Below are positions 4,160 to 35,985 of a DNA stretch of 64,000 nucleotides, one piece after another (within the stretch, counting starts at the first letter, position 1; each line of letters begins with the position of its first letter). This DNA comes from an uncultured Planctomycetota bacterium (GTDB taxonomy: Bacteria > Planctomycetota > Planctomycetia > Isosphaerales > Isosphaeraceae). The notes under the pieces are model-generated. The model was given only the letters and a program-made list of their open reading frames with translations, was not told the DNA's origin and did not search any database. Position numbers and translations under genes: made by a program. The stretch is from positions 192,001 to 256,000 of the forward strand of contig CAWJTV010000020.1 of the NCBI GenBank assembly GCA_963845755.1, read 5' to 3'.

Positions 4160-5740
4160 ATGGAAACTCACGCACCGGCACACCGAGGGCGGCCGACCTC
4201 TGGAACCTCGCGCTCTCGGCGATGCGGCAGCAGAAGGTTCGCACGACGCTGACGATCATCGGCGTGGTGGTGGGTACGTTTGCCCTGGTGCTCAGCGTGG
4301 CCGTGGGGCGGGGGATCGATCGCGCGATCATCAAGCTGTTCCGCGAGGACGATCGGCTCCGCAAGATCCTGGTCAACACGAAGTTCGAGGAAAAACTCGA
4401 GAACGTCCCGATCGAACGCCGCGAACCCAAGGGGGAGATGAGCGACGCCAAGCGGGCGAGGCTCCGCAAGGCGATCGTGCGCACACTGGGGATTCTCGAG
4501 ACGTCCACAGTCCAAGCTGACGGCCGACGCGATCCGTAAGCTCGCGGCTCTCGACCATGTCGCCAGCGCCGTGCCGTATGTCAATCTGGGCGGCAAGGCC
4601 ATTCTCGAGGGCAAAGCCGAGGGCGCCGGTGTCAACTCAGTTCCGCCGGATACGCGTTCCTTCCGCGATCGGCTGATCGCGGGGCGATTGTTCACGCCTG
4701 AAGACGGCCGGGTCGCGATCGTCCACGAGTACCTGCTCTATCGCTGGGGACTCGTCCGCGATGAAGATGCCGAGGCGGTGCTGGGGCGGACGTTCCGCCT
4801 GGAGATTCAATCGCAACCCCCCAACACCGTAGACGTGTCCGAGTTCCTCCGGACGGACAATGAACCGATCGAGGAAAAACAGAAACGCGCCCTGGAGTCC
4901 GCCCTGAAGCGGATTGCGAGCCTGGCGCGGCTCCTGCCGCTCCCTCGCGACGAGCGGGACATGTTGGATGAGCTGTTCAACCACATCTCGGCGACCTCCC
5001 GAACGAAACCGTCGCAGACCTTCGTCGAGGAGTTCACCATCGTCGGCGTGGTCCGGGAACATGAGGAGAAGGATCGGGAGCCGGGATGGGGATTATTTGG
5101 GATTGAGATGAACGATATCCTGTTGCCGACCGCGGCGGCTGTCGCGTTCAAGATGCGCGACCCGGACGTCGCCGAGGAGGGATTCCACGAGGTTATGATC
5201 ACGGTCGATCGCGAGGAGGCCGTGAAGGACCTCGCGAAGCAGATCGAGAAGATGGGCTACCGGCAGTTCTCGCTCGCCGAATTCATCGACACTGTCCGCA
5301 TGAACGTGATGCTGATATCGATGGCCACCGCGTTCGTGGCCGTCGTGGCCCTTGTGGTCGCCTCGATCGGGATCACCAACACCATGATCATGAGCGTGCT
5401 GGAGCGGACTCACGAGATCGGAGTCATGAAAGCGCTGGGCGCGCGCGACCGTCACATCCGCTGGATCTTCCTGGTGGAGGGGATGATCCTCGGGATCTTC
5501 GGCAGCGGGCTGGGATTGGTTCTGGCGTGGCTCGCCTCGTTCCCCGGCGATTCGATCACCAGGAGCATCATGGAGTCGCAGAAAAATCATATGCCGGTCA
5601 AGGGCACGCTATTCGCGTTCCCGATCTGGATGGTGCTCGGCGTACCGGCCGCGGTCTGCCTCATCACGACGCTGGCGGCGGCCTATCCCGCCGCACGCGC
5701 CGCAAGGGTCGATCCAGTGACATCCTTGCGGCATGAGTGA
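4156..5740 (+). CDS. ABC transporter permease (MacB/FtsX family), frameshift near 4480-4515
   Basis: RTTLTIIGVVVG in ORF 4156-4539; IGITNTMIMSVLERTHEIGVMKALGA..YPAARAARVDPVTSLRHE in ORF 4571-5740. Confidence 0.88.
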
Positions 5741-5760
5741 TCAGGTTCCCACTCACGCGG

Positions 5761-6885
5761 TCAATTCGAGTCCTTGGCGGCGGCGGCGACAGAGCCCCGC
5801 TTCGCGGCGGGCGGCTTGACCGGCCCGAGCGTCTTGATCAAGCGGAGCAGCTCGCTGTCGGTCGTCAGGATCAGCCGCGTATCTCCCTTCAATGCCTCCT
5901 TGTAGACGTCGAGCGTGCGGGTGAAATTGTAGAAGTCGCCGGTCTCCAGGATGGCCTTGGCATAGGAGTCGATGATCTCCGCGTCGACGCGGCCCTTGAG
6001 GATGCTGGCTTCCTGCTTCCCCTCGCCCTCGATCTTCTGGACCTCGGCCTGGGACTTGTTGATGATCTCCTTCTTGCGCTGTTCGCCCTCGCTGGTCGTC
6101 TTGACGGCGATTGCTTCCATCAGCGAGATGGCGCGGTCGAAGGCGGCCTCGCGCACCTGGGGCACGAACTCGATCCGGGAGAGGCCGACGTCGACCAGCT
6201 CGATACCGCGGCCCTTGCCCTGACTCTCACGTTGCCCATCCTCGGCCAGGGCGTGCTGGGCGGTCTCCCGGATCTGGCTGATGATCTTGAGACGGCCGAG
6301 CTGGACGGATTCCTTGGCCTCGGGCGGGACGATGAAGTCGAGCATGGCCTGATCCGGCTCGGTGCCCGCGGCCGCCTTTCCCGGCTCGCCGGCGCGTGCG
6401 ACCATCTCCGGCGGCAGGCCCAGCGAATAGGTCATCTTGCGATTGGTGCTCCGGACGATCTCGGCCAGGTTGTGGGTGGTGATCGTGTCGCGCGCCGTGC
6501 TCCGGACGAACTCCTTGACGCGGGACTCGGCATTCGGCACGGTGCGCAGCGCCCGGACGAACTGGGCCGGGTCGGTGATCCGCCAGACCGCCCAGACCGT
6601 GACCTCGACCTTCTTGCCGTCGGCGGTGGGGACGTCAACGAGCCGCTCTTCCGGGATGGTCCCGTGCCAGACCTGGAGGGTCTTGGGCAACCGCAGGACT
6701 TCCTGGATCATCGGAACCTTGAAGTAGAGCCCGGGCTTGGTGCGGCTGACGACGGGCTCGCCGAACTGGAGCAGGACGGCCAGCTCGCGCTCGTTGACCG
6801 TGTAGAGCAGGGAATCCAACACGGGGAAGGCCAGCACGAGGGCCAGCCCGACCAGGACGGAGGCAATCGGGCGTCGGCGGTTCAT
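5761..6885 (-). CDS. hflC: FtsH protease modulator HflC (SPFH domain)
   Basis: TM anchor, LQFGEPV..PGLYFKVP, GIELVDV, FYNFTRTLDVY..LILTTDS; overlaps hflK by 4 bp. Confidence 0.85.
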   Translation of the reverse strand: MNRRRPIASVLVGLALVLAFPVLDSLLYTVNERELAVLLQFGEPVVSRTKPGLYFKVPMIQEVLRLPKTLQVWHGTIPEERLVDVPTADGKKVEVTVWAVWRITDPAQFVRALRTVPNAESRVKEFVRSTARDTITTHNLAEIVRSTNRKMTYSLGLPPEMVARAGEPGKAAAGTEPDQAMLDFIVPPEAKESVQLGRLKIISQIRETAQHALAEDGQRESQGKGRGIELVDVGLSRIEFVPQVREAAFDRAISLMEAIAVKTTSEGEQRKKEIINKSQAEVQKIEGEGKQEASILKGRVDAEIIDSYAKAILETGDFYNFTRTLDVYKEALKGDTRLILTTDSELLRLIKTLGPVKPPAAKRGSVAAAAKDSN

Positions 6886-7898
6886 GGGCTCGTCTCTCCC
6901 TTCGCGTCGAGGTTCAGGAGCGGCAGGAGCTGCTTGAGGTCGCTATCGATGATCGTCTTGTTCTTCACGCCCTGGAGGATCTCCTGCATCGCCTCGAGGT
7001 AGAGGCGCTGCCGAGTGATGTCCGGGGCGCGCTGATAGGCGTGATACTTGGCCAAGAGCGCCTCGATCTCGCCGTTCGCCTCGGCGCGCCGGCGAGAGGC
7101 ATAACCCTCGGCCTCGCGGATCAACTTGTCGCGGCTGGCCCGGGCCTCGGGGATCAGGCGGTTCCGCATCGCCTCGGCTTCATTCTCCAGCTTCTGCTTC
7201 TGCTGGATCGCGGCGTTGACCTTGTCGAAGGCCGGCTTGACCCGGTCGGGCGGGATCACGCGCTGCATCTGGAGGGCCGTGACCGTGATGCCGCAGGCGT
7301 AGGCATCGAGGATCTGTTGCGCGTCGGCGCGGGCCTTGAACGCGATATCGCTCCGCTTGGCACCGATCACTTCATCGAACGAGTAGTCGCCCACCAGGCC
7401 GTTCATCACGGTGCGGGCCACGGTCGTCAGCAGGTTCTCGGCGAACCGGTTGTTCTCGTCCTGCGGGAAGCGGAACAGGAACTGCGAGGGCTCGGTCACC
7501 TTCCACTGGACGGTCCACTCGACCGATGCGGTATTCAGGTCGCCCGTCAGCATCAGGGTCTCGTCTTCCAGGCCGATCCGCTGGGAATTGATCGGATCCT
7601 CGGTGCGGGACGCCTGGCCGAACGGCAGCCGCAGGCCGTGCTCCTCGACACTGACCTTCATCACCTGGTCAACCAGCGGAAACTTCAGATGCAGCCCCGG
7701 CATGGTCGTCGCGTGATTCTTGCCGAACCGTAGCACGACGGCCTGCTCGTGGGGTTTGACCGTGTAGCTGAGATCCGACAACAGCCACAAGGCCAGGATC
7801 AACCCGACGATCCAGGGAAACAACGGTAGGTAGCGCTGCCATACCTCGCTCGGCATCGCATCGTCTCTGCGTCGCCGATAGTCCTCGTATGACTCCAT
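6882..7898 (-). CDS. hflK: FtsH protease modulator HflK (SPFH domain)
   Basis: VVLRFGK..PGLH, MLTGDLN, PPDRVKPAFDKV, IPEARA, APDITRQRLYLEAM. Confidence 0.88.
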   Translation of the reverse strand: MESYEDYRRRRDDAMPSEVWQRYLPLFPWIVGLILALWLLSDLSYTVKPHEQAVVLRFGKNHATTMPGLHLKFPLVDQVMKVSVEEHGLRLPFGQASRTEDPINSQRIGLEDETLMLTGDLNTASVEWTVQWKVTEPSQFLFRFPQDENNRFAENLLTTVARTVMNGLVGDYSFDEVIGAKRSDIAFKARADAQQILDAYACGITVTALQMQRVIPPDRVKPAFDKVNAAIQQKQKLENEAEAMRNRLIPEARASRDKLIREAEGYASRRRAEANGEIEALLAKYHAYQRAPDITRQRLYLEAMQEILQGVKNKTIIDSDLKQLLPLLNLDAKGETSP

Positions 7899-8292
7899 CT
7901 TCGGGAAACCTTCCTCATGGAATGAGTATGACCTCAGCTCGCGGTCGCACTGAGATGGAACGGCAAGCCCATTGCACGACTCACCTGTCTGTTCGCCGCA
8001 TCTCCTGAAATCTTGGATCGATCCGGTGGGCCGGTCCGTTCGCCTTCCCTCGGCTTCGGGTGCGATGTCGGCTCGACCGACCGACCGGCCGCGCGTTCCG
8101 GCAACGTCCCTCCGCCGAGGGATCCGCGAGATTTCCCCGATTGTTGACGCGAGGTCCGGCGTTCAGCAAGTGAGGAAGTCCGGCATCCGGCCCGAGATTG
8201 GGAGGAATCCGACCGACTCACTAAAGAATTCGTTGGCGGCGCGTTCCGGGAGCCGGATATCATGGGAACGAATTCCTTCGGAGATTTCTCTC

Positions 8293-10613
8293 ATGAAAAG
8301 CCGTCGAACTTGGTCTCGGACTCCTCGGGCTGTCGGGACTCGCCCTGCTCCTGGTGGGCGGATGGCAATTGCAGGCGAAACGTGCCGATCCGTCTCGCGC
8401 TAAACCGGCGCACGGCTCCAGGCGAGCGACTCTGGGATCCCGGCGACCTGGCAGTGCGTCGGCAAGTCCGTTTTCCCCGGACTTGACGTATCGCCCCAAT
8501 CAGCCGGTGCTCGACCCGAGCGGTTACGGCGCCGTGAGCTTCCTCATGAGACCCTGGAGGCCGGATGCGACGTTGCAGGAGATCCGCGATCACTGGTACG
8601 GGGCCGGTTTCCGGGGCGCCAGGATCATGGATGAGCGGCTGACCGATCCCAATCTGACGAGAGAATCGGAGATCGCCTTTTTGTACGCGAAAGTGGCCTT
8701 GCTGAACTATGAAGGCGAGGCGCGGCAGGCCTACGAGACCCTCGGACGGCTGCGGTCGATCGTCGCGAGCGACGACCGGATCGCCCAACTTTCGCTGGCG
8801 AGCATCATCCACCTCCAGGGCATAACCGCGCTGCGGTTGGGTGAGAATGATAACTGCATCATGTGTCGTGGTGAGAGCGCCTGTATTTTCCCGATCGCGC
8901 CGACGGCCGTTCATGCCAAACCCGAGGGTTCGCGGCTGGCGGTCCGCCACTTCACGGAGTATCTCGATCAGTTCCCGAATCACCTGGAGGTCCGCTGGCT
9001 CCTCAACGTCGCCCACATGACCCTCGGCGAATACCCGGATCGGGTCGATCCCCGGTTCCGATTGAACCTGGACGATTTCTTCCAGTCCCAGCTCGACATC
9101 GGCCGGTTCCGCGACATCAGCGACGTGGTTGGGCTCGACCGCTTCAACCAGTCGGGGGGCGCGATCATGGACGATTTCGACGACGACGGGTTGCTCGATG
9201 TCGTCGTGACCTCCTCCGACCCGACCGAGAGCATGGCCTACTACCGGAACAAGGGGGATGGCACCTTCGAGGATCGGTCTCGGGACGCGGGCCTGACCGA
9301 TCAGCTCGGGGGCCTGGTCTGTTATCAGGCCGACTACAACAACGACGGGCGACTCGACATCTTCATCCCGCGGTGCCTGGCATAACTGGCCGATGCGTCC
9401 GACGCTGCTCCAGAATGACGGCACCGGCCGATTCCGCGACGTGACCCGGGAAGCCGGGCTCTTGGATCCGGCTAATTCCAACGCTGCCGCCTGGGCGGAC
9501 TACGACAACGACGGCTGGATCGACCTGTTTGTCGCCTGCGAGCGCCAGGACAACCGGCTGTACCACAACAAGGGGGATGGGACGTTCGAAGAGGTCGCCG
9601 CCAAGGCCGGCGTGCATGTCGGCGATCCTCGTCGATACTGCAAAGGGTGCACCTGGGTCGACTACGACAACGACGATTTCCCGGACCTGTTCGTGAACAA
9701 TATGTGCGAGGACGCCCGGTTGTACCACAACTCCCGCGACGGCCGCTTCGAGGAAGTCACCTCGGCGGCGGGGATCGATGGGCCCCACCTGGGCTTTTCT
9801 TGCTGGACCTGGGACTACGACAACGATGGCTGGCTCGATATCTTCGCCGCCTGCTTCGACCGGACACTCGAGGATGTCGTTCGCGGCCTCCTGAAGCTGC
9901 CACAGGACCGTTATTCGAATCGCCTGTTTCGGAACCTCGATGGCAAGGGGTTTCAGAACAAGATCGCGGAGGCCGGGCTGGACATGCCGTTCTCCAGCAT
10001 GGGGACCAATTTCGCGGATTTCGACAACGACGGATTCCTCGATTTCTACCTGGGCACCGGCTCGCCCAGTCTGGGCTTCCTGGTCCCGAATCGCATGTTC
10101 AAGAACGTCGACGGCGAGCGGTTCGTCGACATCTCGTCCTCCTCCGGGACCGGTCATCTCCAAAAGGGGCACGGCGTGGCCTGCGGTGACTGGGACCGCG
10201 ACGGCGACGTCGACCTGTTCATCGAAACGGGAGGCGCCGTTCCCGGCGACAAGTATCACAACATCCTCTTCCAGAATCCCGGCCAGGGGAACCACTGGCT
10301 GACGATGAAGCTCATCGGTCAGAAGACCAACCGGTCGGCCATCGGTGCCCGGATCAAGGTCGTCACGGCCGGCGAGAAGCCGCTGACGATTCACCGACAT
10401 GTCACCTCGGGCAGCAGCTTCGGGGCCAACCCTCTGGAGCAGACGATCGGTCTGGCCAGGGCCGACCGCGTCGCCTCGCTGGAGATCCACTGGCCGGCCA
10501 GCGGGATGACGCAGGTCTTCCACGACATCGACGTCAACCAGGCCATCGAGATCCGCGAATTCTCGGCAGGCTACCGGAAGCTTGACTGGAAGCCCTTACC
10601 CGCACTGCATTGA
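8293..10613 (+). CDS. CRTAC1/ASPIC-UnbV FG-GAP repeat protein, frameshifts near 8312 and 9372
   Basis: Many DYDNDGxxD repeats and a C-terminal ASPIC/UnbV segment (NRSAIGARI..WPASG). The junction restores IFIPRGAW..MRPTLL. N-terminal hydrophobic stretch follows ATG 8293. Confidence 0.85.
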
Positions 10614-31913: not shown

Positions 31914-33498
31914 TCACTTCTTCGAATCGCCGAGTCCAGGAGATGCCCCTCCCGGCAACCGGACGGTCAGTTCCTCGGCCTTGTGTAGCACCGCACTCAA
32001 ATCGCCCGTGGCCGCGATCGTTCCCTTCCGATCGAGGAGCACCGCGTGCGGGATCCGGCTCACTCTGTACCGCTCGTAGAGCCAGCCCCACGTCGAGCCT
32101 TTCTCCGGAGCGGCCACGTTGACGCAGACGGGGTATTGCATGTCGAATTCCTTCACGACCTTCCGGATCGCATCCTCGGTGCTGCCCGGCGGGTGGATGC
32201 CGATCACCAGGATGTCCGCCGGGTGCCTCTTGTGCAAGGCGGCCAGCCCCGGCAGGTCGTTTCGGCAGGGGCCGCACCATTCGGCCCAGAAATCCAGGAT
32301 CACGAGTTTGCCCGCGAGCTTGCCCACCTCCAGCGGCCGGCTGTTGAGCCATTTCGACTCGGCCGGGAACGGTGCCGCGGGCCGGCCGATCAGCGCCGCC
32401 TGCTTCTGCTCGTACGACCGGTCGCGGTTCTCGCGCGCCTTCCCCTCGGCGATGATCTTCGCCCACTCCTCCGGCGGGATCACCGCCTTATGGCGGTACC
32501 GTAGGGGCGGGTCGTGCGTCTGGTCGTTGACCCACGCCCCCTCCCGGAAGGACACCGTGAACAGGGCGTCGGGCAGGGACGGGTTGACCGTCGACTCGGT
32601 GATGGTGACCGTGTGCGTCAGGTCGAGGAACGGCTTGCCGTCCTCGCCGGCCGAGAAGATCACCAATCTCTGGGTCATGGGAAGCCAGCACCCCGGCGCC
32701 ACCTCCTTCTCGTCGCCCAGCGTGAACTCAAAAACCGGATCGATGAGCCGGTGCATCGCCTTCTCGTTGGCCCGCGACGGCAGGTAGATCCGACTCCTCA
32801 GGTTCGCGAGCGCGCCCGACCGGATTCCGTGCAGTCGCCCTCCGATCGCCCCGATGAAGAGCGACGTCCACGAGGCCCGGTGATTCACCACGTGGCACGA
32901 TGTCCCGTGGAAGTCGGCGAGCCCGCCGTACGCGTAGTCCTCGGGCTTGCCCAGCAACCGGGTGATCGCCTCGACGTCCTTCTCCTGGTTCCACCAGAAG
33001 GAGTGTGGCCCGGCCCGGAACGAGGCGAAATGTGTCCAGATGTGCCAGTAGAGCCATTGCTCCGGGTTGCGGTTGATGAGGTAGCCGTCGCGGTCGGGGG
33101 CGTAATCGTAGTGGTTGGCGAGGATGAACCGGGCACCATCCCACACCCGCAGGTCGTCGTCCTCTCCCACCGTCGTGACCCGCAACCGCACTCGCGAGCG
33201 GTCGAACGCGAGGTCGACCCGCCCGTCCTTTTCCGGCTCAAGGTCGCGGAACTTCGAAACGTCGGCCCCGGGGAACTGCGCCCGCAGCTCTTTCGTCCGC
33301 TTCTCGATCCCCCGCGGAGACCGTACCGAGTGCTCGTCGGCCCGGATCCGCAGGCTGCTTACGCGCTCGATCCACGCCTCCCGCGCCGCGTACCTGCCGC
33401 ACCAGGGCCGCCGCGTCGGGACCCTCGTCGGCCGTCGCGACCGCGACTGCAAGCCACAGCACCGTCCCGCCCGCCATCCCGGACCGCCCGATCTTCAT
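31914..33498 (-). CDS. Secreted TlpA-family thiol-disulfide oxidoreductase with long N-terminal domain, frameshift near 33395
   Basis: GKLVILDFWAEWCGPC..IPHAVLLDRKG; the signal peptide is in the 33498 frame. Confidence 0.82.
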
Positions 33499-33881
33499 GG
33501 GTCGGCTCCCCAGCCACGATACCCGACAAGTGTTCGAGGCTCAGAGCATCTTACAATGGTCATAGACCCACGGCAAGTTCAGGGAGCGTCACAGGGGTTC
33601 CCGGGAAATGGCGATCCTGGCATGCTTGGACGCTTACGGACAGCGCCACAAGAGCACCTTGATCGCTTCAGTTATTTGTCAACACGGGCTGGTGGGGTGG
33701 TGGTCAGTTCCGATCAATTCTAGTGATGGGTTCCCACCCGGCCTGCTGCCGGGTGGGCAATCATCCGGCCGCGGTACCCTCAGAGAATGGGTCTCGGGCT
33801 TGCCACCTAAGCCCTTATTGCCTAAGATGAATCGTCCGATCCTCTCGTCATGTGGACCGCAGGGGGTTCTGGGAAGGAACC

Positions 33882-34337
33882 ATGCCGATTACCTTCACCA
33901 AGCTGCGTCTCTCATGGTTCGCCCTGGCGGCGTTTGTGGGTGCGTCCCAGGTGACGGGCGATGCATCGGCGGCCTGTGGGTCAATGCCGGCCACCGGGGC
34001 GTGTCCGCGGGTTCGCGTTTGCTGCAAAGGATCGGAATCGGCCACGTCGATCCGGACCGCCGTTGCACCGGCGATTGCCCGTCAGGTCATCCTGTCGCCG
34101 AGCCGGAACATCTGCCCGGATATTCCCGGATGTCATTGCTGTCCGCAAGCTCCGACCGCCCCGCAACCCAGGGGACGGCATGCCGAGGAAAGCCGTCCCG
34201 ATCCGGGCCGCAGTGCGGAGGCCGGATGGCTCGATCTCGGCGTCGTTTTCCGGCCGTTTATCGGTCCGGTGCCGCCGACAGTCAGCCCGCCGCAGACATC
34301 CCCTCTCTATCTCCGCAATTCCCGGCTTCTGATCTGA
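33882..34337 (+). CDS. Cys- and Pro-rich exported leader-like protein (151 aa)
   Basis: GGAAGGA RBS; signal-like N-terminus; 8 Cys (CC, CHCC); ends PVPPTVSPPQTSPLYLRNSRLLI*. Confidence 0.7.
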   Translation: MPITFTKLRLSWFALAAFVGASQVTGDASAACGSMPATGACPRVRVCCKGSESATSIRTAVAPAIARQVILSPSRNICPDIPGCHCCPQAPTAPQPRGRHAEESRPDPGRSAEAGWLDLGVVFRPFIGPVPPTVSPPQTSPLYLRNSRLLI

Positions 34338-34567
34338 AATCGCCCCTGCATCGAGGTCATCGAGATTCATGCGTTCGGCGTCCGTATTCGGCTCCCTGCG
34401 GGCCGGAGTGCCGCTACGCATCGGGTGTCGAGCAGTCCTGATGCCAGGGCTGAGGATGACGGTCCGTACTCATGGATCGTCATCCCCCTCCCTGTCAGGG
34501 GGCGGGAACGTGCCGCCCGCAACGTGCGTGCGGCCGATTTCAGGGTCATGAAGTTGGGAGACAGATC

Positions 34568-34888
34568 ATGAATCGTCGTCGATTGTTGGGCATGGTCGGG
34601 GCGTTAGCCTTGGCCGGCGTGATGGGCGTTGTTGCGGCCGCCGAGAAGACGAAGGCGGCCAAGGCAGCAGCGGACTGCTGTTGCGGTGATAGCTGCTGCT
34701 GTGGGGACGCCTGCCAGGATGCTTGCTGCTGCGGTCCCGACTGCTGCGGCGATGCCTGCTGCTGCGAGTCCACCACGAGCAGGGCGGCTGCCGTCAAGGT
34801 CGAGTCATGCTGTGTGGAAGACGTCAAGGCGGCGGCGGACTGCTGCCCGGCGACCACGGCCGAAGCCAAAGCTGCGGTCGTCCACTGA
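34568..34888 (+). CDS. Secreted Cys-rich metallothionein-like protein (106 aa, 19 Cys)
   Basis: GGGAG RBS; signal MNRRRLLGMVGALALAGVMGVVAAA; core DCCCGDSCCCGDACQDACCCGPDCCGDACCC plus two more CC pairs. Confidence 0.78.
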   Translation: MNRRRLLGMVGALALAGVMGVVAAAEKTKAAKAAADCCCGDSCCCGDACQDACCCGPDCCGDACCCESTTSRAAAVKVESCCVEDVKAAADCCPATTAEAKAAVVH

Positions 34889-34957
34889 GATTCGGGAGAG
34901 CCGGTCCCCGGCGGCACCAGGGACCGGCTCCGGTCAGAACCCGAAGGTCAGACGCAA

Positions 34958-34992
34958 GGGGCGGGACGCATCGAGCGTCCCGCCCCGTTTCC
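34958..34992 (+). terminator. Rho-independent terminator-like hairpin
   Basis: 12-bp stem GGGGCGGGACGC/GCGTCCCGCCCC followed by GTTTCC. A second 11-bp hairpin lies at 34898-34930. Confidence 0.7.
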
Positions 34993-35081
34993 ATTGTACG
35001 GTGATACGGCACGCCGGCTAGAATCGGCGGCCGTATCGTCTATTTCTGCACCGGGGAGTAGCATCCGAGAGTGACCCGACG

Positions 35082-35185
35082 ATGACAGCGTTCGGCTTCG
35101 CCTGCTTGATCGGTGTGTTCCTGCTTACCGCTTTGGTCAGTGTCGCGACGGGCGGCACTTCGCTCATCACCGTGGCGGCGATGAG
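35082..35185 (+). pseudogene. 5' fragment of a TauE/SafE-like membrane protein
   Basis: MTAFGFACLIGVFLLTALVSVATGGTSLITVAAM, then abrupt loss of similarity. Confidence 0.45.
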
Positions 35186-35725
35186 CCCGCGCCGCGCCCC
35201 TCTCCCTCCAGGTCAGCCGGCAAGGCCGGTTAGTCTCCACCTTAAATTTTTTTTGGAATTTTTTATCTGCCGCTGGGGTCAGGACTTCAGGCGGCTCGCG
35301 GCCAAAATCCGCGCTAGGTGCATTAACGCTTTCGAAAAGTTGCGGCATCCTGATAGATATGAGGATGCGCGATGACGACACGAAGCTGGGCCTCGGGACT
35401 GCGCCGACCGATTCGCCCAATCACCGCAACCCGTTCCCGGTCAGCGAGATCGGGGATGGAGCCCCGGCAAATAGATGTCCAGAAATGCCATCCTGTGCCT
35501 CAATTCTGCCCCGGGGTAAGGGATGGCGGGGTCGTTCCGAGAAGCCGGGTCGATCCCCGGAACGTTGCCGCCCCGCTCACCATCGCGGAACGGCGTGGCG
35601 ATCGGCGAGAGCTCTCGAAAAAACAAGAGACCATTTCCGGGCCGGTCGCTCGCCCGCGAAGCGATGATCGGAGGACCGCGGAATGGTTGGGACGGTCTAA
35701 AATCGTGGCTCACTATATATAGATG

Positions 35726-35754
35726 ATTTTTAATATGTTATTGATATTAAAAAT
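35726..35754. promoter_or_regulatory. AT-rich operator-like palindrome upstream of the E1/E2/SDR operon
   Basis: ATTTTTAATAT-N7-ATATTAAAAAT perfect inverted repeat inside a ~55-bp mostly A/T patch. Confidence 0.5.
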
Positions 35755-35985
35755 AATTAAATGACTAAATGATCGTTGTTGATCTGGCGCGGTGGGCCCG
35801 GGGCCGCATGCCCGGCTCGTGGAGGCGCCGCTTGGTGTGCGCCGCTCAATTGCGGTCCGCTCCCGATGCCCTGATCTCTGGCACCGCGGGACCCGGTCCG
35901 TACAATGGAAAGCCGGATCGTGGACCGATCGGGGTGAGTTCGAGGGCGTCCCTTCCAGCGCCGGAGCCGTTGAGGTGACCGACTG

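Follow-up and report, generated by a model that had tools for sequence, protein, structure and literature searches.

A conserved gene pair of Planctomycetota in which a long-range RNA helix is predicted to mask the ribosome-binding site of an exported Cys-rich protein

A compact two-gene unit occupies positions 33882..34992 of a 64,000-nucleotide (nt) stretch of DNA from an uncultured Planctomycetota bacterium (contig CAWJTV010000020.1, assembly GCA_963845755.1); this whole stretch is referred to here as the window. The unit consists of an open reading frame (ORF) for a putatively exported, Cys-bearing leader protein (ORF A), a structured spacer, and a second frame for a putatively exported Cys-rich protein (ORF B). 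A genome scan gave at least four related loci, all in Planctomycetota metagenome-assembled genomes (L001, L002, L003, and L004), which together with the window form the five loci compared throughout. The order promoter, ORF A, spacer, ORF B, and terminator was found in the window and in all four related loci listed. A first-pass annotation of the same DNA had described ORF A as a frame of 151 amino acids (aa) with a signal-like N-terminus, eight Cys, and a LYLRNSRLLI end, followed by a 230-nt spacer and a Cys-rich effector; all of these are present, and what it observed is confirmed, while its interpretation as a metal-sensing, ribosome-stalling switch is partly supported. The unit contains the following features.

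33800..33828, + strand: promoter-like site, TTGCCA-17 nt-TAAGAT (promoter scan, five-locus alignment)
33882..34337, + strand: ORF A, putative exported Cys-bearing leader protein, 151 aa (homologues, codon selection)
34302..34337, + strand: tail codons PLYLRNSRLLI and UGA, a candidate ribosome-pausing peptide (motif conservation, peptide-level selection)
34338..34567, + strand: structured spacer of 230 nt, a predicted multi-helix junction (folding, five-locus consensus)
34568..34888, + strand: ORF B, putative exported Cys-rich protein, 106 aa, 19 Cys (homologues, codon selection)
34898..34931, + strand: hairpin in the 3' untranslated region after ORF B, its arms aligned and largely invariant in the five loci
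34958..34996, + strand: terminator-like hairpin of 12 pairs (11 G-C), stem 34958-34986, then GTTTCCATTG (terminator scan)

A homologue of ORF B follows ORF A on the same strand in 5/5 loci, at a distance of 227-235 nt or, in L003, 359 nt because of a 125-nt insertion. According to the DNA alignment of the five loci, the non-coding parts of the unit are conserved at least as well as the middle of ORF A, and the genes flanking the unit differ from locus to locus. The site at 33800 is the sole sigma-70-like match on the + strand within 33450-35450 in a scan built on an E. coli-type consensus. Its TTGnC and TAnnnT show no variation across the alignment of the five loci, and the 17 nt between them vary; the homologous site passes the scan in L003 and falls below threshold in L001, L002, and L004. 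Scans of the spacers found neither a terminator-like site, in keeping with the first-pass annotation, which had seen no U-tailed terminator before the effector, nor a + strand promoter-like site that might serve ORF B separately, in any of the five loci. The terminator-like stem is conserved in all five, as is the ATTGTACGG that follows it, which is invariant, and this hairpin (34958..34996) is probably the end of an A-B transcript. The 3' untranslated region as a whole (34889-34996) is conserved in the five loci, with a GGGAG preceding the hairpin at 34898-34931. One transcript running from promoter to terminator would be the simplest reading of the unit. Beyond the five loci, homologues of A and B lie on contigs of equal size three times (21514, 26574, and 2059, the sources of the last differing), which is suggestive of a wider linkage between the two genes.

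ORF A carries 20 Pro, and its eight Cys stand at residues 32, 41, 47, 48, 78, 84, 86, and 87; the signal-like N-terminus extends over ~residues 1-30, with ...ASA followed by AC, as judged by eye and from a structure model. Because its codon-position composition is weak (GC of 0.64/0.64/0.70 at the three positions against ~0.64/0.48/0.89 in neighbouring genes), a chance open frame in GC-rich non-coding DNA needed to be excluded, and the frames overlapping ORF A are likewise open. Such an origin is contradicted by a profile search of 1.84 billion cluster representatives, which returned 202 homologous clusters at E <=0.001 (70 at <=1e-10) that share the length and terminal motif of ORF A, most being ~150 aa long with the alignment reaching their own last residue. 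A word-indexed search likewise gave 30 homologues at 47-75% identity, nearly all of 148-151 aa, and the median family length is 153 aa (over the 104 members between 140 and 170 aa). Four DNA copies were aligned by codon, with L002 omitted because its copy is frameshifted near codon 60; they yielded a dN/dS of 0.39-0.56 and more differences at third positions (451) than at first (341) or second (327); synonymous differences exceed non-synonymous ones, above all in the tail. The most distant copy, in L004, has a third-position GC of 0.84. On the homologous clusters and codon selection, the chance frame was rejected and is effectively refuted; ORF A reads as a real, fast-evolving gene, slow only at its Cys clusters and tail.

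Outside the tail, the family keeps a hydrophobic N-terminus (...ALAA..G....ASA), CxxxxxCC shortly after it, and CxC followed by PxAPxP, with both Cys clusters (41/47/48 and 84/86) conserved. Neither Pfam nor NCBIfam assigned the window's ORF A to a family, 95 family members matched no Pfam family, a PDB profile search with the same 95 gave no match, and tblastn of ORF A against plasmids gave none. In a protein atlas, both ORF A and ORF B fall in unnamed clusters only, commonest in Planctomycetota. An AlphaFold model of ORF A from a 25-row alignment (predicted local distance difference test, pLDDT, 52; predicted template modelling score 0.15) contains a signal helix at residues 6-25 only, with pLDDT <50 across residues 29-78, so that apart from this helix the protein has no predicted fold. 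ORF A appears to represent a new family, characterized by its C-terminal motif. In L002, ORF A (6001-6452) switches frame near codon 60, and the family proteins P0021, P0034, P0047, and P0072 are likewise frame-switched translations running into the spacer; indels introduced during long-read assembly are the likely cause, gene decay being the alternative. Third-position GC is 0.70 in ORF A and 0.77 in ORF B against 0.86-0.89 in the flanking genes, and these low values fit horizontal movement of the unit or a constraint from RNA structure.

No part of the ORF A protein is better conserved than its tail. The family sequences surveyed numbered 177 (the window protein, 29 matches from the word-indexed search, and 147 from the profile search), and 166 of them end in the motif P-L-Y-L-R-[TN]-[SA]-R-L-L-[IF]-stop at the extreme C-terminus (counts out of 166: P156, L146, Y157, L164, R139, T75/N57, S100/A37, R156, L161, L155, I137/F23). 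The family sequences share <=50% mutual identity, and the motif always directly abuts the stop codon, which is UGA in 5/5 loci; among the other 11 sequences, three differ by an Ala at -10 only and eight are truncated or frameshifted. The profile that finds the family includes the tail, which introduces some circularity into the count, the tail being just 11 of its 150 positions. Between the window and L004, the last 12 codons differ by eight synonymous changes and one non-synonymous change (proportions of changed sites, pS 0.71 and pN 0.04), and the other locus pairs behave similarly (pN 0.00-0.12 against pS 0.18-0.71). Such synonymous changes without amino-acid change led us to reject a pure RNA constraint as the reason for the conservation, and the PLYLR codons lie outside the long-range helix P1 described below; RNA pairing is therefore not the cause of their conservation. 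Selection on the tail, to judge from these codon changes, acts at the peptide level. The conservation of Cys clusters and tail that the first-pass annotation had named as a check on its proposal is borne out by these results. Its description of the tail as Pro-rich holds for the 20 residues before the motif and fails for the last 11, which contain a single Pro; the window has a Pro pair at -17/-16, such pairs occur within the last 15 residues of 51/166 family sequences and within the last 20 of 97/166, and the ORF A tail has neither RAPP nor PPP. A full-text literature search with motif strings, matched anywhere, gave no relevant paper.

ORF B opens with a putative twin-arginine-type (RR) signal, MNRRRLLG...AAA, and its mature part is built of CCC, CC, and CxxC runs. 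Twelve homologues were found, rising to 27 with a profile; RR occurs within the first eight residues of 26/28 family sequences, and members contain 5-26 Cys (15-26 in the closer ones). The dN/dS of ORF B is 0.26-0.62. The model TIGR01409 (TAT_signal_seq) reaches 15.4 bits on ORF B against a cut-off of 16.7 (E = 0.018), in one of 13 members, and the same 13 members match no metallothionein or DUF326 model in Pfam or NCBIfam and no Pfam family. Runs of adjacent Cys are typical of metal-thiolate proteins rather than of disulfide knots, and because of these runs ORF B may be called metallothionein-like, by composition only. The Cys-rich part appears to vary by whole modules: the homologue in L001 (6678-6884) has 68 aa and stops after the first Cys block, and the versions of L004 and P0046 carry an extra repeat of it. 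Searches of the literature on Cys-rich or metallothionein proteins of Planctomycetes found nothing relevant. Metal transporters or oxidases had been expected downstream of ORF A; what was found there is the Cys-rich ORF B, in 5/5 loci.

The spacer between the two genes is predicted to fold into a junction closed by a helix, P1, that reaches back into ORF A. Its elements are as follows.

34320..34342, + strand: 5' strand of P1, comprising the last five sense codons of ORF A from Ser147, the UGA, and 5 nt, with the anti-Shine-Dalgarno UCCC
34343-34357 with 34435-34449, + strand: helix P2, CCCTGCATC/GATGCCAGGG, enclosing nested helices
34454-34485, + strand: hairpin H3, GGATGACGGTCC/GGATCGTCATCC, which forms in 5/5 loci
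~34484-34507, + strand: C-run hairpin (spacer fold)
34512-34534, + strand: further spacer hairpin (spacer fold)
34535..34559, + strand: 3' strand of P1, ending in the GGGA of the ORF B Shine-Dalgarno
34556..34560, + strand: Shine-Dalgarno GGGAG of ORF B, 7 nt before the ATG

For the segment 34320-34575, the folding energy is -136.2 kcal/mol; 200 dinucleotide shuffles gave -103.6 +/- 5.3, and none of them was as good (z = -6.1). Of the 405 pair cells in the consensus structure of the five loci, 89.4% hold a pair, a share that drops to 37-50% once the partners are slid, and double changes occur at 11/82 pairs against 6.0 +/- 1.8 in shuffles, of which 3/500 reach 11, statistics that rest on five sequences and have little power. 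All 11 double-change pairs sit in inner helices. The three nested hairpins named in the first-pass annotation (P2, ATGCGT/ACGCAT, and H3) recur in the consensus fold or when the five loci are folded singly. Searched with Rfam 15 at E <=10, positions 33500-35400 gave a best score of 20.3 bits against a gathering score of 104, for a microRNA model, which is a chance match. A conserved small ORF inside the spacer was considered and rejected, given the 1-2-nt indels and the 125-nt insertion there. That insertion (within L003:6563-6718) lies in the H3 loop, where it forms a long, imperfect hairpin of its own with a short GAGTGT repeat at its borders; it resembles a miniature mobile element, and the basal 11 pairs of H3 are kept around it.

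Helix P1 appears in the minimum-energy single fold, in the consensus fold, and in the per-locus folds, with the rest of the spacer forming the junction inside it. The GGAG of the ORF B Shine-Dalgarno is invariant in the five loci, and its GGGA pairs with the UCCC of the Ser-Arg codons in 4/5 loci; because of a synonymous UCC-to-UCU change, the partner in L003 is a GCUCCC 35 nt further upstream, still within ORF A. The duplex energy of P1 is -30.7 kcal/mol in the window (z = -7.1) and -20.5 to -24.4 in the other loci, with z from -3.0 to -7.1 across the five and 0, 0, 0, 9, and 2 per 1000 shuffles as good. Measured against other segments, 0/1776 are as good in the window and 0-25 of ~1775 across loci. 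The probability that the ORF B Shine-Dalgarno is paired in the free RNA is 0.78-1.00 in the five loci. Folding thus predicts that the Shine-Dalgarno of ORF B is masked by a long-range helix with the terminal codons of ORF A, and the existence of both this masking helix and the ORF A family is well supported. An invariant CAUCCCCCUCCCUG at 34480-34495, aligned in L001-L004, contains an anti-Shine-Dalgarno-like CCUCC and competes in folding simulations with the end of ORF A for the Shine-Dalgarno, which hints at a possible two-state switch.

The computations show an operon layout that is conserved between loci and a tail under selection as a peptide, and they predict a masking helix; the pairing of the Shine-Dalgarno with the tail codons is, if it forms as folded, the architecture that a stalling switch needs. 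We propose, at a probability of roughly 0.4, a switch resembling those of CutF and SecM, whereby ORF B is unmasked when a ribosome pauses at the end of ORF A. A single mRNA carrying both genes would extend between the promoter-like site (33800) and the terminator-like hairpin (34958). While this mRNA is free, P1, a helix of ~23 base pairs that closes the 230-nt junction, would lock away the ORF B Shine-Dalgarno, so that efficient translation of ORF B would occur only while a ribosome sits at the end of ORF A. At termination, when UGA stands in the A site, the invariant last 11 residues would occupy the ribosomal tunnel between the peptidyl-transferase centre and the constriction, and the tail peptide would slow termination and prolong the occupancy. 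The length of the pause might be set by the fate of the exported N-terminal part, whose Cys clusters would be exposed to metal or to thiol-redox conditions in the periplasm, and synthesis of ORF B would in this way follow conditions outside the cytoplasm. We infer that the ribosome pauses, that export or metal modulates this pause, and that ORF B binds metal, the pause and its signal by analogy with known systems. From the size and conservation of the junction, we think that an RNA-level input coexists with the action of ORF A.

Judging from its usual footprint size, a ribosome whose A site holds the UGA would cover ~34317-34348, and with it the entire 5' strand of P1. The effect was simulated by deleting this strand and recomputing the probability that the Shine-Dalgarno is paired for each of the five loci. 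It fell from 0.97 to 0.31 in the window, from 1.00 to 0.51 in L004, and from 0.78 to 0.52 in L002. The remaining results of this simulation count against the proposed switch, as do several others. Pairing stayed high in L001 (0.89 free, 0.80 without the strand) and L003 (0.91 and 0.98), where other C-rich spacer segments, notably CAUCCCCCUCCCUG, replace the P1 strand; the Shine-Dalgarno was opened in 3/5 loci and stayed closed in 2/5, and thermodynamic support for unmasking is therefore partial. When the upstream coding sequence was left free to pair, opening was weaker still, and the spacer probably has alternative conformations. P1 has no pair with a compensatory double change; in 10 of its pairs just one side changed, 8 show unpaired exceptions, and coding constrains its 5' strand in any case. 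The conserved 230-nt junction exceeds what a masking helix needs, and some other input is therefore likely. As for the peptide, none of the published arrest motifs resembles PLYLRxSRLLI-stop, the Pro pairs within the last 15 residues characterize a minority of the family (51/166), unlike CutF-type tails, and the Pfam family DUF2946 matches neither the window's ORF A, which has no Pfam match at E <=1, nor any of 95 family members (0/95 at E <=0.1). A metal context, finally, is clear in just 1-2 of the five loci.

Much of the same evidence could be accommodated by plain translational coupling, in which ORF A would be a stable periplasmic partner (such as a metallochaperone or a thiol partner of ORF B), the tail a docking, sorting, or protease-recognition motif, and P1 a device that couples the two genes without a regulated pause. 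A binding motif would fit the peptide-level selection on the tail no less well than an arrest motif would, the C-terminus ends in hydrophobic residues (Leu-Leu-Ile/Phe), the Cys clusters of ORF A are conserved, the two genes always occur together in the five loci, and P1 would suffice without a pause. Such a partner is, however, hard to recognize in a protein for which only the signal helix is predicted to fold (pLDDT 52) and whose dN/dS of 0.39-0.56 is loose for a structural role; the motif, moreover, always abuts the stop, and its codons form the strand that masks the ORF B Shine-Dalgarno. We regard this explanation as possible, if somewhat unlikely.

Another explanation places all regulation in the spacer, as an autonomous cis-regulatory RNA (a ligand or protein switch, or a thermosensor) to which ORF A, an ordinary gene, merely lends one helix strand. 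The junction is indeed conserved over its 230 nt in sequence and structure (11/82 pairs covarying, z = -6.1), it holds invariant segments that look single-stranded and, in CAUCCCCCUCCCUG, a second anti-Shine-Dalgarno-like C-run that competes in simulations, and in L003 a hairpin loop takes up 125 nt with its stem kept. Yet no Rfam family matches at E <=10, the statistics from five sequences are weak, and an autonomous RNA leaves the invariant tail of ORF A and the constant attachment of the RNA to this gene unexplained; we consider it quite improbable. Lower still do we rate the view that the two genes are independent neighbours, with ORF B driven by a promoter of a type beyond the scan and P1 absent in vivo. 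The limitation of the promoter scan to an E. coli-type consensus, which also weakens the case for the proposed switch, leaves room for such a promoter, GC-rich RNA has many alternative pairings, and P1 lacks compensatory double changes. Against independence, spacing, order, and intergenic sequence are conserved in 5/5 loci despite different flanks, the complementarity of P1 exceeds that of shuffles in all five, and there is no terminator after ORF A.

The proposed switch also admits a more ambitious form, which we think doubtful: PLYLRxSRLLI-stop would define a new, proline-poor class of termination-stage arrest on an exported Cys-bearing sensor (~200 clusters, chiefly in Planctomycetota), the stalled ribosome would sit on the masking strand, and the junction would be a second, sensing RNA. 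If this were true, synthesis of an exported metallothionein-like protein would integrate a periplasmic signal, read by the nascent chain as metal or thiol redox, with a cytoplasmic signal read by RNA.

The neighbourhoods of the unit are as follows.

Window: upstream, a TlpA-like thioredoxin gene; downstream, a TauE remnant
L001: upstream, AhpC/TSA; downstream or nearby, a P19-type iron transporter and FTR1
L002: upstream, a sulfatase; downstream or nearby, TauE, an SBF/ACR3-like carrier, and a methyltransferase
L003: upstream, DUF1501; downstream or nearby, DUF1877
L004: upstream, a MerR regulator and a MauE-like membrane protein; downstream or nearby, a DUF326 protein, a 2CSK_N sensor kinase, and a response regulator
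Window, 31914..33498, - strand: TlpA/ResA-like thioredoxin-fold gene with WCGPC (Pfam Thioredoxin_8, 5e-11; NCBIfam)
Window, 35082..35183, + strand: TauE/SafE-family remnant that comprises just the first 34 codons (28/34 residues identical to the L002 gene)

A metal or redox context that favours the proposed switch is offered by MerR, DUF326, and 2CSK_N in L004, by AhpC/TSA, the P19-type transporter, and FTR1 in L001, and by the TlpA-like gene in the window. The unit of L004 stands between the MerR and MauE-like genes and the DUF326 gene with its RR signal (4423-7746 and 8070-10279), and the kinase and response regulator adjoin; the N-terminus of the MauE-like protein resembles a heavy-metal-associated domain by eye, and these surroundings may be read as a metal-resistance island. 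The TlpA-like gene is a divergent neighbour of the unit in the window only. It had been called secreted: the WCGPC thioredoxin fold is there, and the signal-peptide-like start (ATG 33498, MKIGRSGMAGGTVLWLAVAVATA...) is out of frame with the 512-aa thioredoxin ORF starting at 33452, an apparent 1-nt frameshift at the 5' end that would represent an assembly error or a pseudogene. The TauE-like fragment noted earlier was recovered as the remnant listed above, and its counterpart in L002 is a full TauE (Pfam 5e-38); the remnant belongs to the neighbourhood and not to the conserved unit. Beyond it follows unrelated sequence with very AT-rich patches at ~35235-35270 and ~35705-35770, in a window of 64% GC, and the region 35082-35780 looks like a deletion or insertion scar.

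Among known systems, the closest in layout is CutF of the Rhodobacter capsulatus cutFOG operon, which has a Sec signal, a CxxxC, and a proline-rich C-terminal stalling motif, and acts in cis only (PMC9973294). A stem-loop shields the Shine-Dalgarno of the downstream gene for the Tat-exported CutO; the spacers of CutF-like genes are mostly <100 nt, and unfolding by a stalled ribosome has been argued to be limited to short distances (PMC9973294). CutF has since been placed in DUF2946, and its stalling in the tunnel has been shown (10.1101/2025.02.05.636593). Like CutF, ORF A is small and comes first in its unit, and it combines an apparent Sec-type signal with Cys motifs and a conserved C-terminal end; as with CutO, which belongs to metal handling, the next gene has a putative twin-arginine-type signal. 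Unlike CutF, ORF A has neither PPP nor RAPP and no sequence relationship to it, the spacer is 230 nt long, and the anti-Shine-Dalgarno lies inside the last codons of ORF A and is brought to its target by a long-range helix, not by a local hairpin between the genes; the gene under control would encode a small Cys-rich protein and not, as in CutF-like systems, an oxidase, an efflux component, or a TonB-dependent transporter. The published length rule for CutF-like proteins is <150 aa with an N-terminal signal peptide, while the window's ORF A has 151 aa and a signal judged by eye and model, and words beginning with "Planctomyc-" are absent from the main text of PMC9973294. CruR (Bp2923) of Bordetella pertussis is an upstream ORF (uORF) of the DUF2946 family with CXXC and RAPP that exerts copper-responsive control in cis through Rho-dependent termination (PMC9426467). 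ORF A is like it in being apparently exported, with a Cys motif and a conserved C-terminal motif, and differs in lacking RAPP and a DUF2946 match; the structured A-B spacer would, we infer, be a poor Rho loading site. The earlier idea of a CruR or CutF analogue without RAPP holds up in the absence of RAPP and in the stalling-type architecture, and not in family membership, ORF A falling outside DUF2946 (0/95).

A published survey of arrest uORFs looked for uORFs of sec or yidC with an N-terminal signal, a conserved C-terminus, and >30 residues between the two (Fujiwara et al., PMC10987492). ORF A shares three of these four properties, namely a signal (by eye and model), a conserved C-terminus, and ~120 residues in between (30 to 151); it departs in its downstream gene, which is the Cys-rich ORF B, and neither sec nor yidC, in 5/5 loci. 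The arrest classes described at stop codons, which stall while the A site holds the stop codon, are NSP-stop, NAP-stop, and DGMK-stop, the last without proline (PMC10987492). With SecM, VemP, and MifM, the unit shares a putative export signal, a conserved C-terminal motif >30 residues away from it, and a downstream Shine-Dalgarno that is, here by prediction, sequestered in RNA structure, which in those systems a stalled ribosome opens; unlike theirs, its target is not secA, secDF, or yidC, and arrest in ORF A is proposed by analogy. In RNA phages, the start site of the replicase is masked by pairing with a distant segment of the coat coding sequence, and only ribosomes that translate this segment open the pairing. 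The predicted masking of ORF B is similar in that a downstream ribosome-binding site is paired with a distant upstream coding segment; here, however, it would operate in a cellular operon, and the masking strand is the very end of ORF A and coincides with the invariant peptide motif. ORF B itself, with Cys runs behind an RR signal, is like bacterial metallothioneins and the Tat-exported Csp/DUF326 proteins, one of which, with an RR signal, adjoins ORF B in L004; unlike them, it matches no such model, and the likeness is compositional.

SecM, VemP, MifM, CutF, and CruR are among the few routes by which extracytoplasmic conditions are reported directly to the ribosome. To our knowledge, almost all known nascent-chain sensors have proline-containing motifs and short intergenic hairpins, and come from Proteobacteria or Firmicutes. 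If it acts as proposed, the A-B unit would add to them a large unannotated family of Planctomycetota with a strictly conserved, stop-abutting motif, which also provides a simple search handle for further examples. It would add a form of wiring in which the masking strand is made of the motif's own codons and the target lies 230 nt away via a folded junction, and a new type of target, an exported protein packed with Cys.

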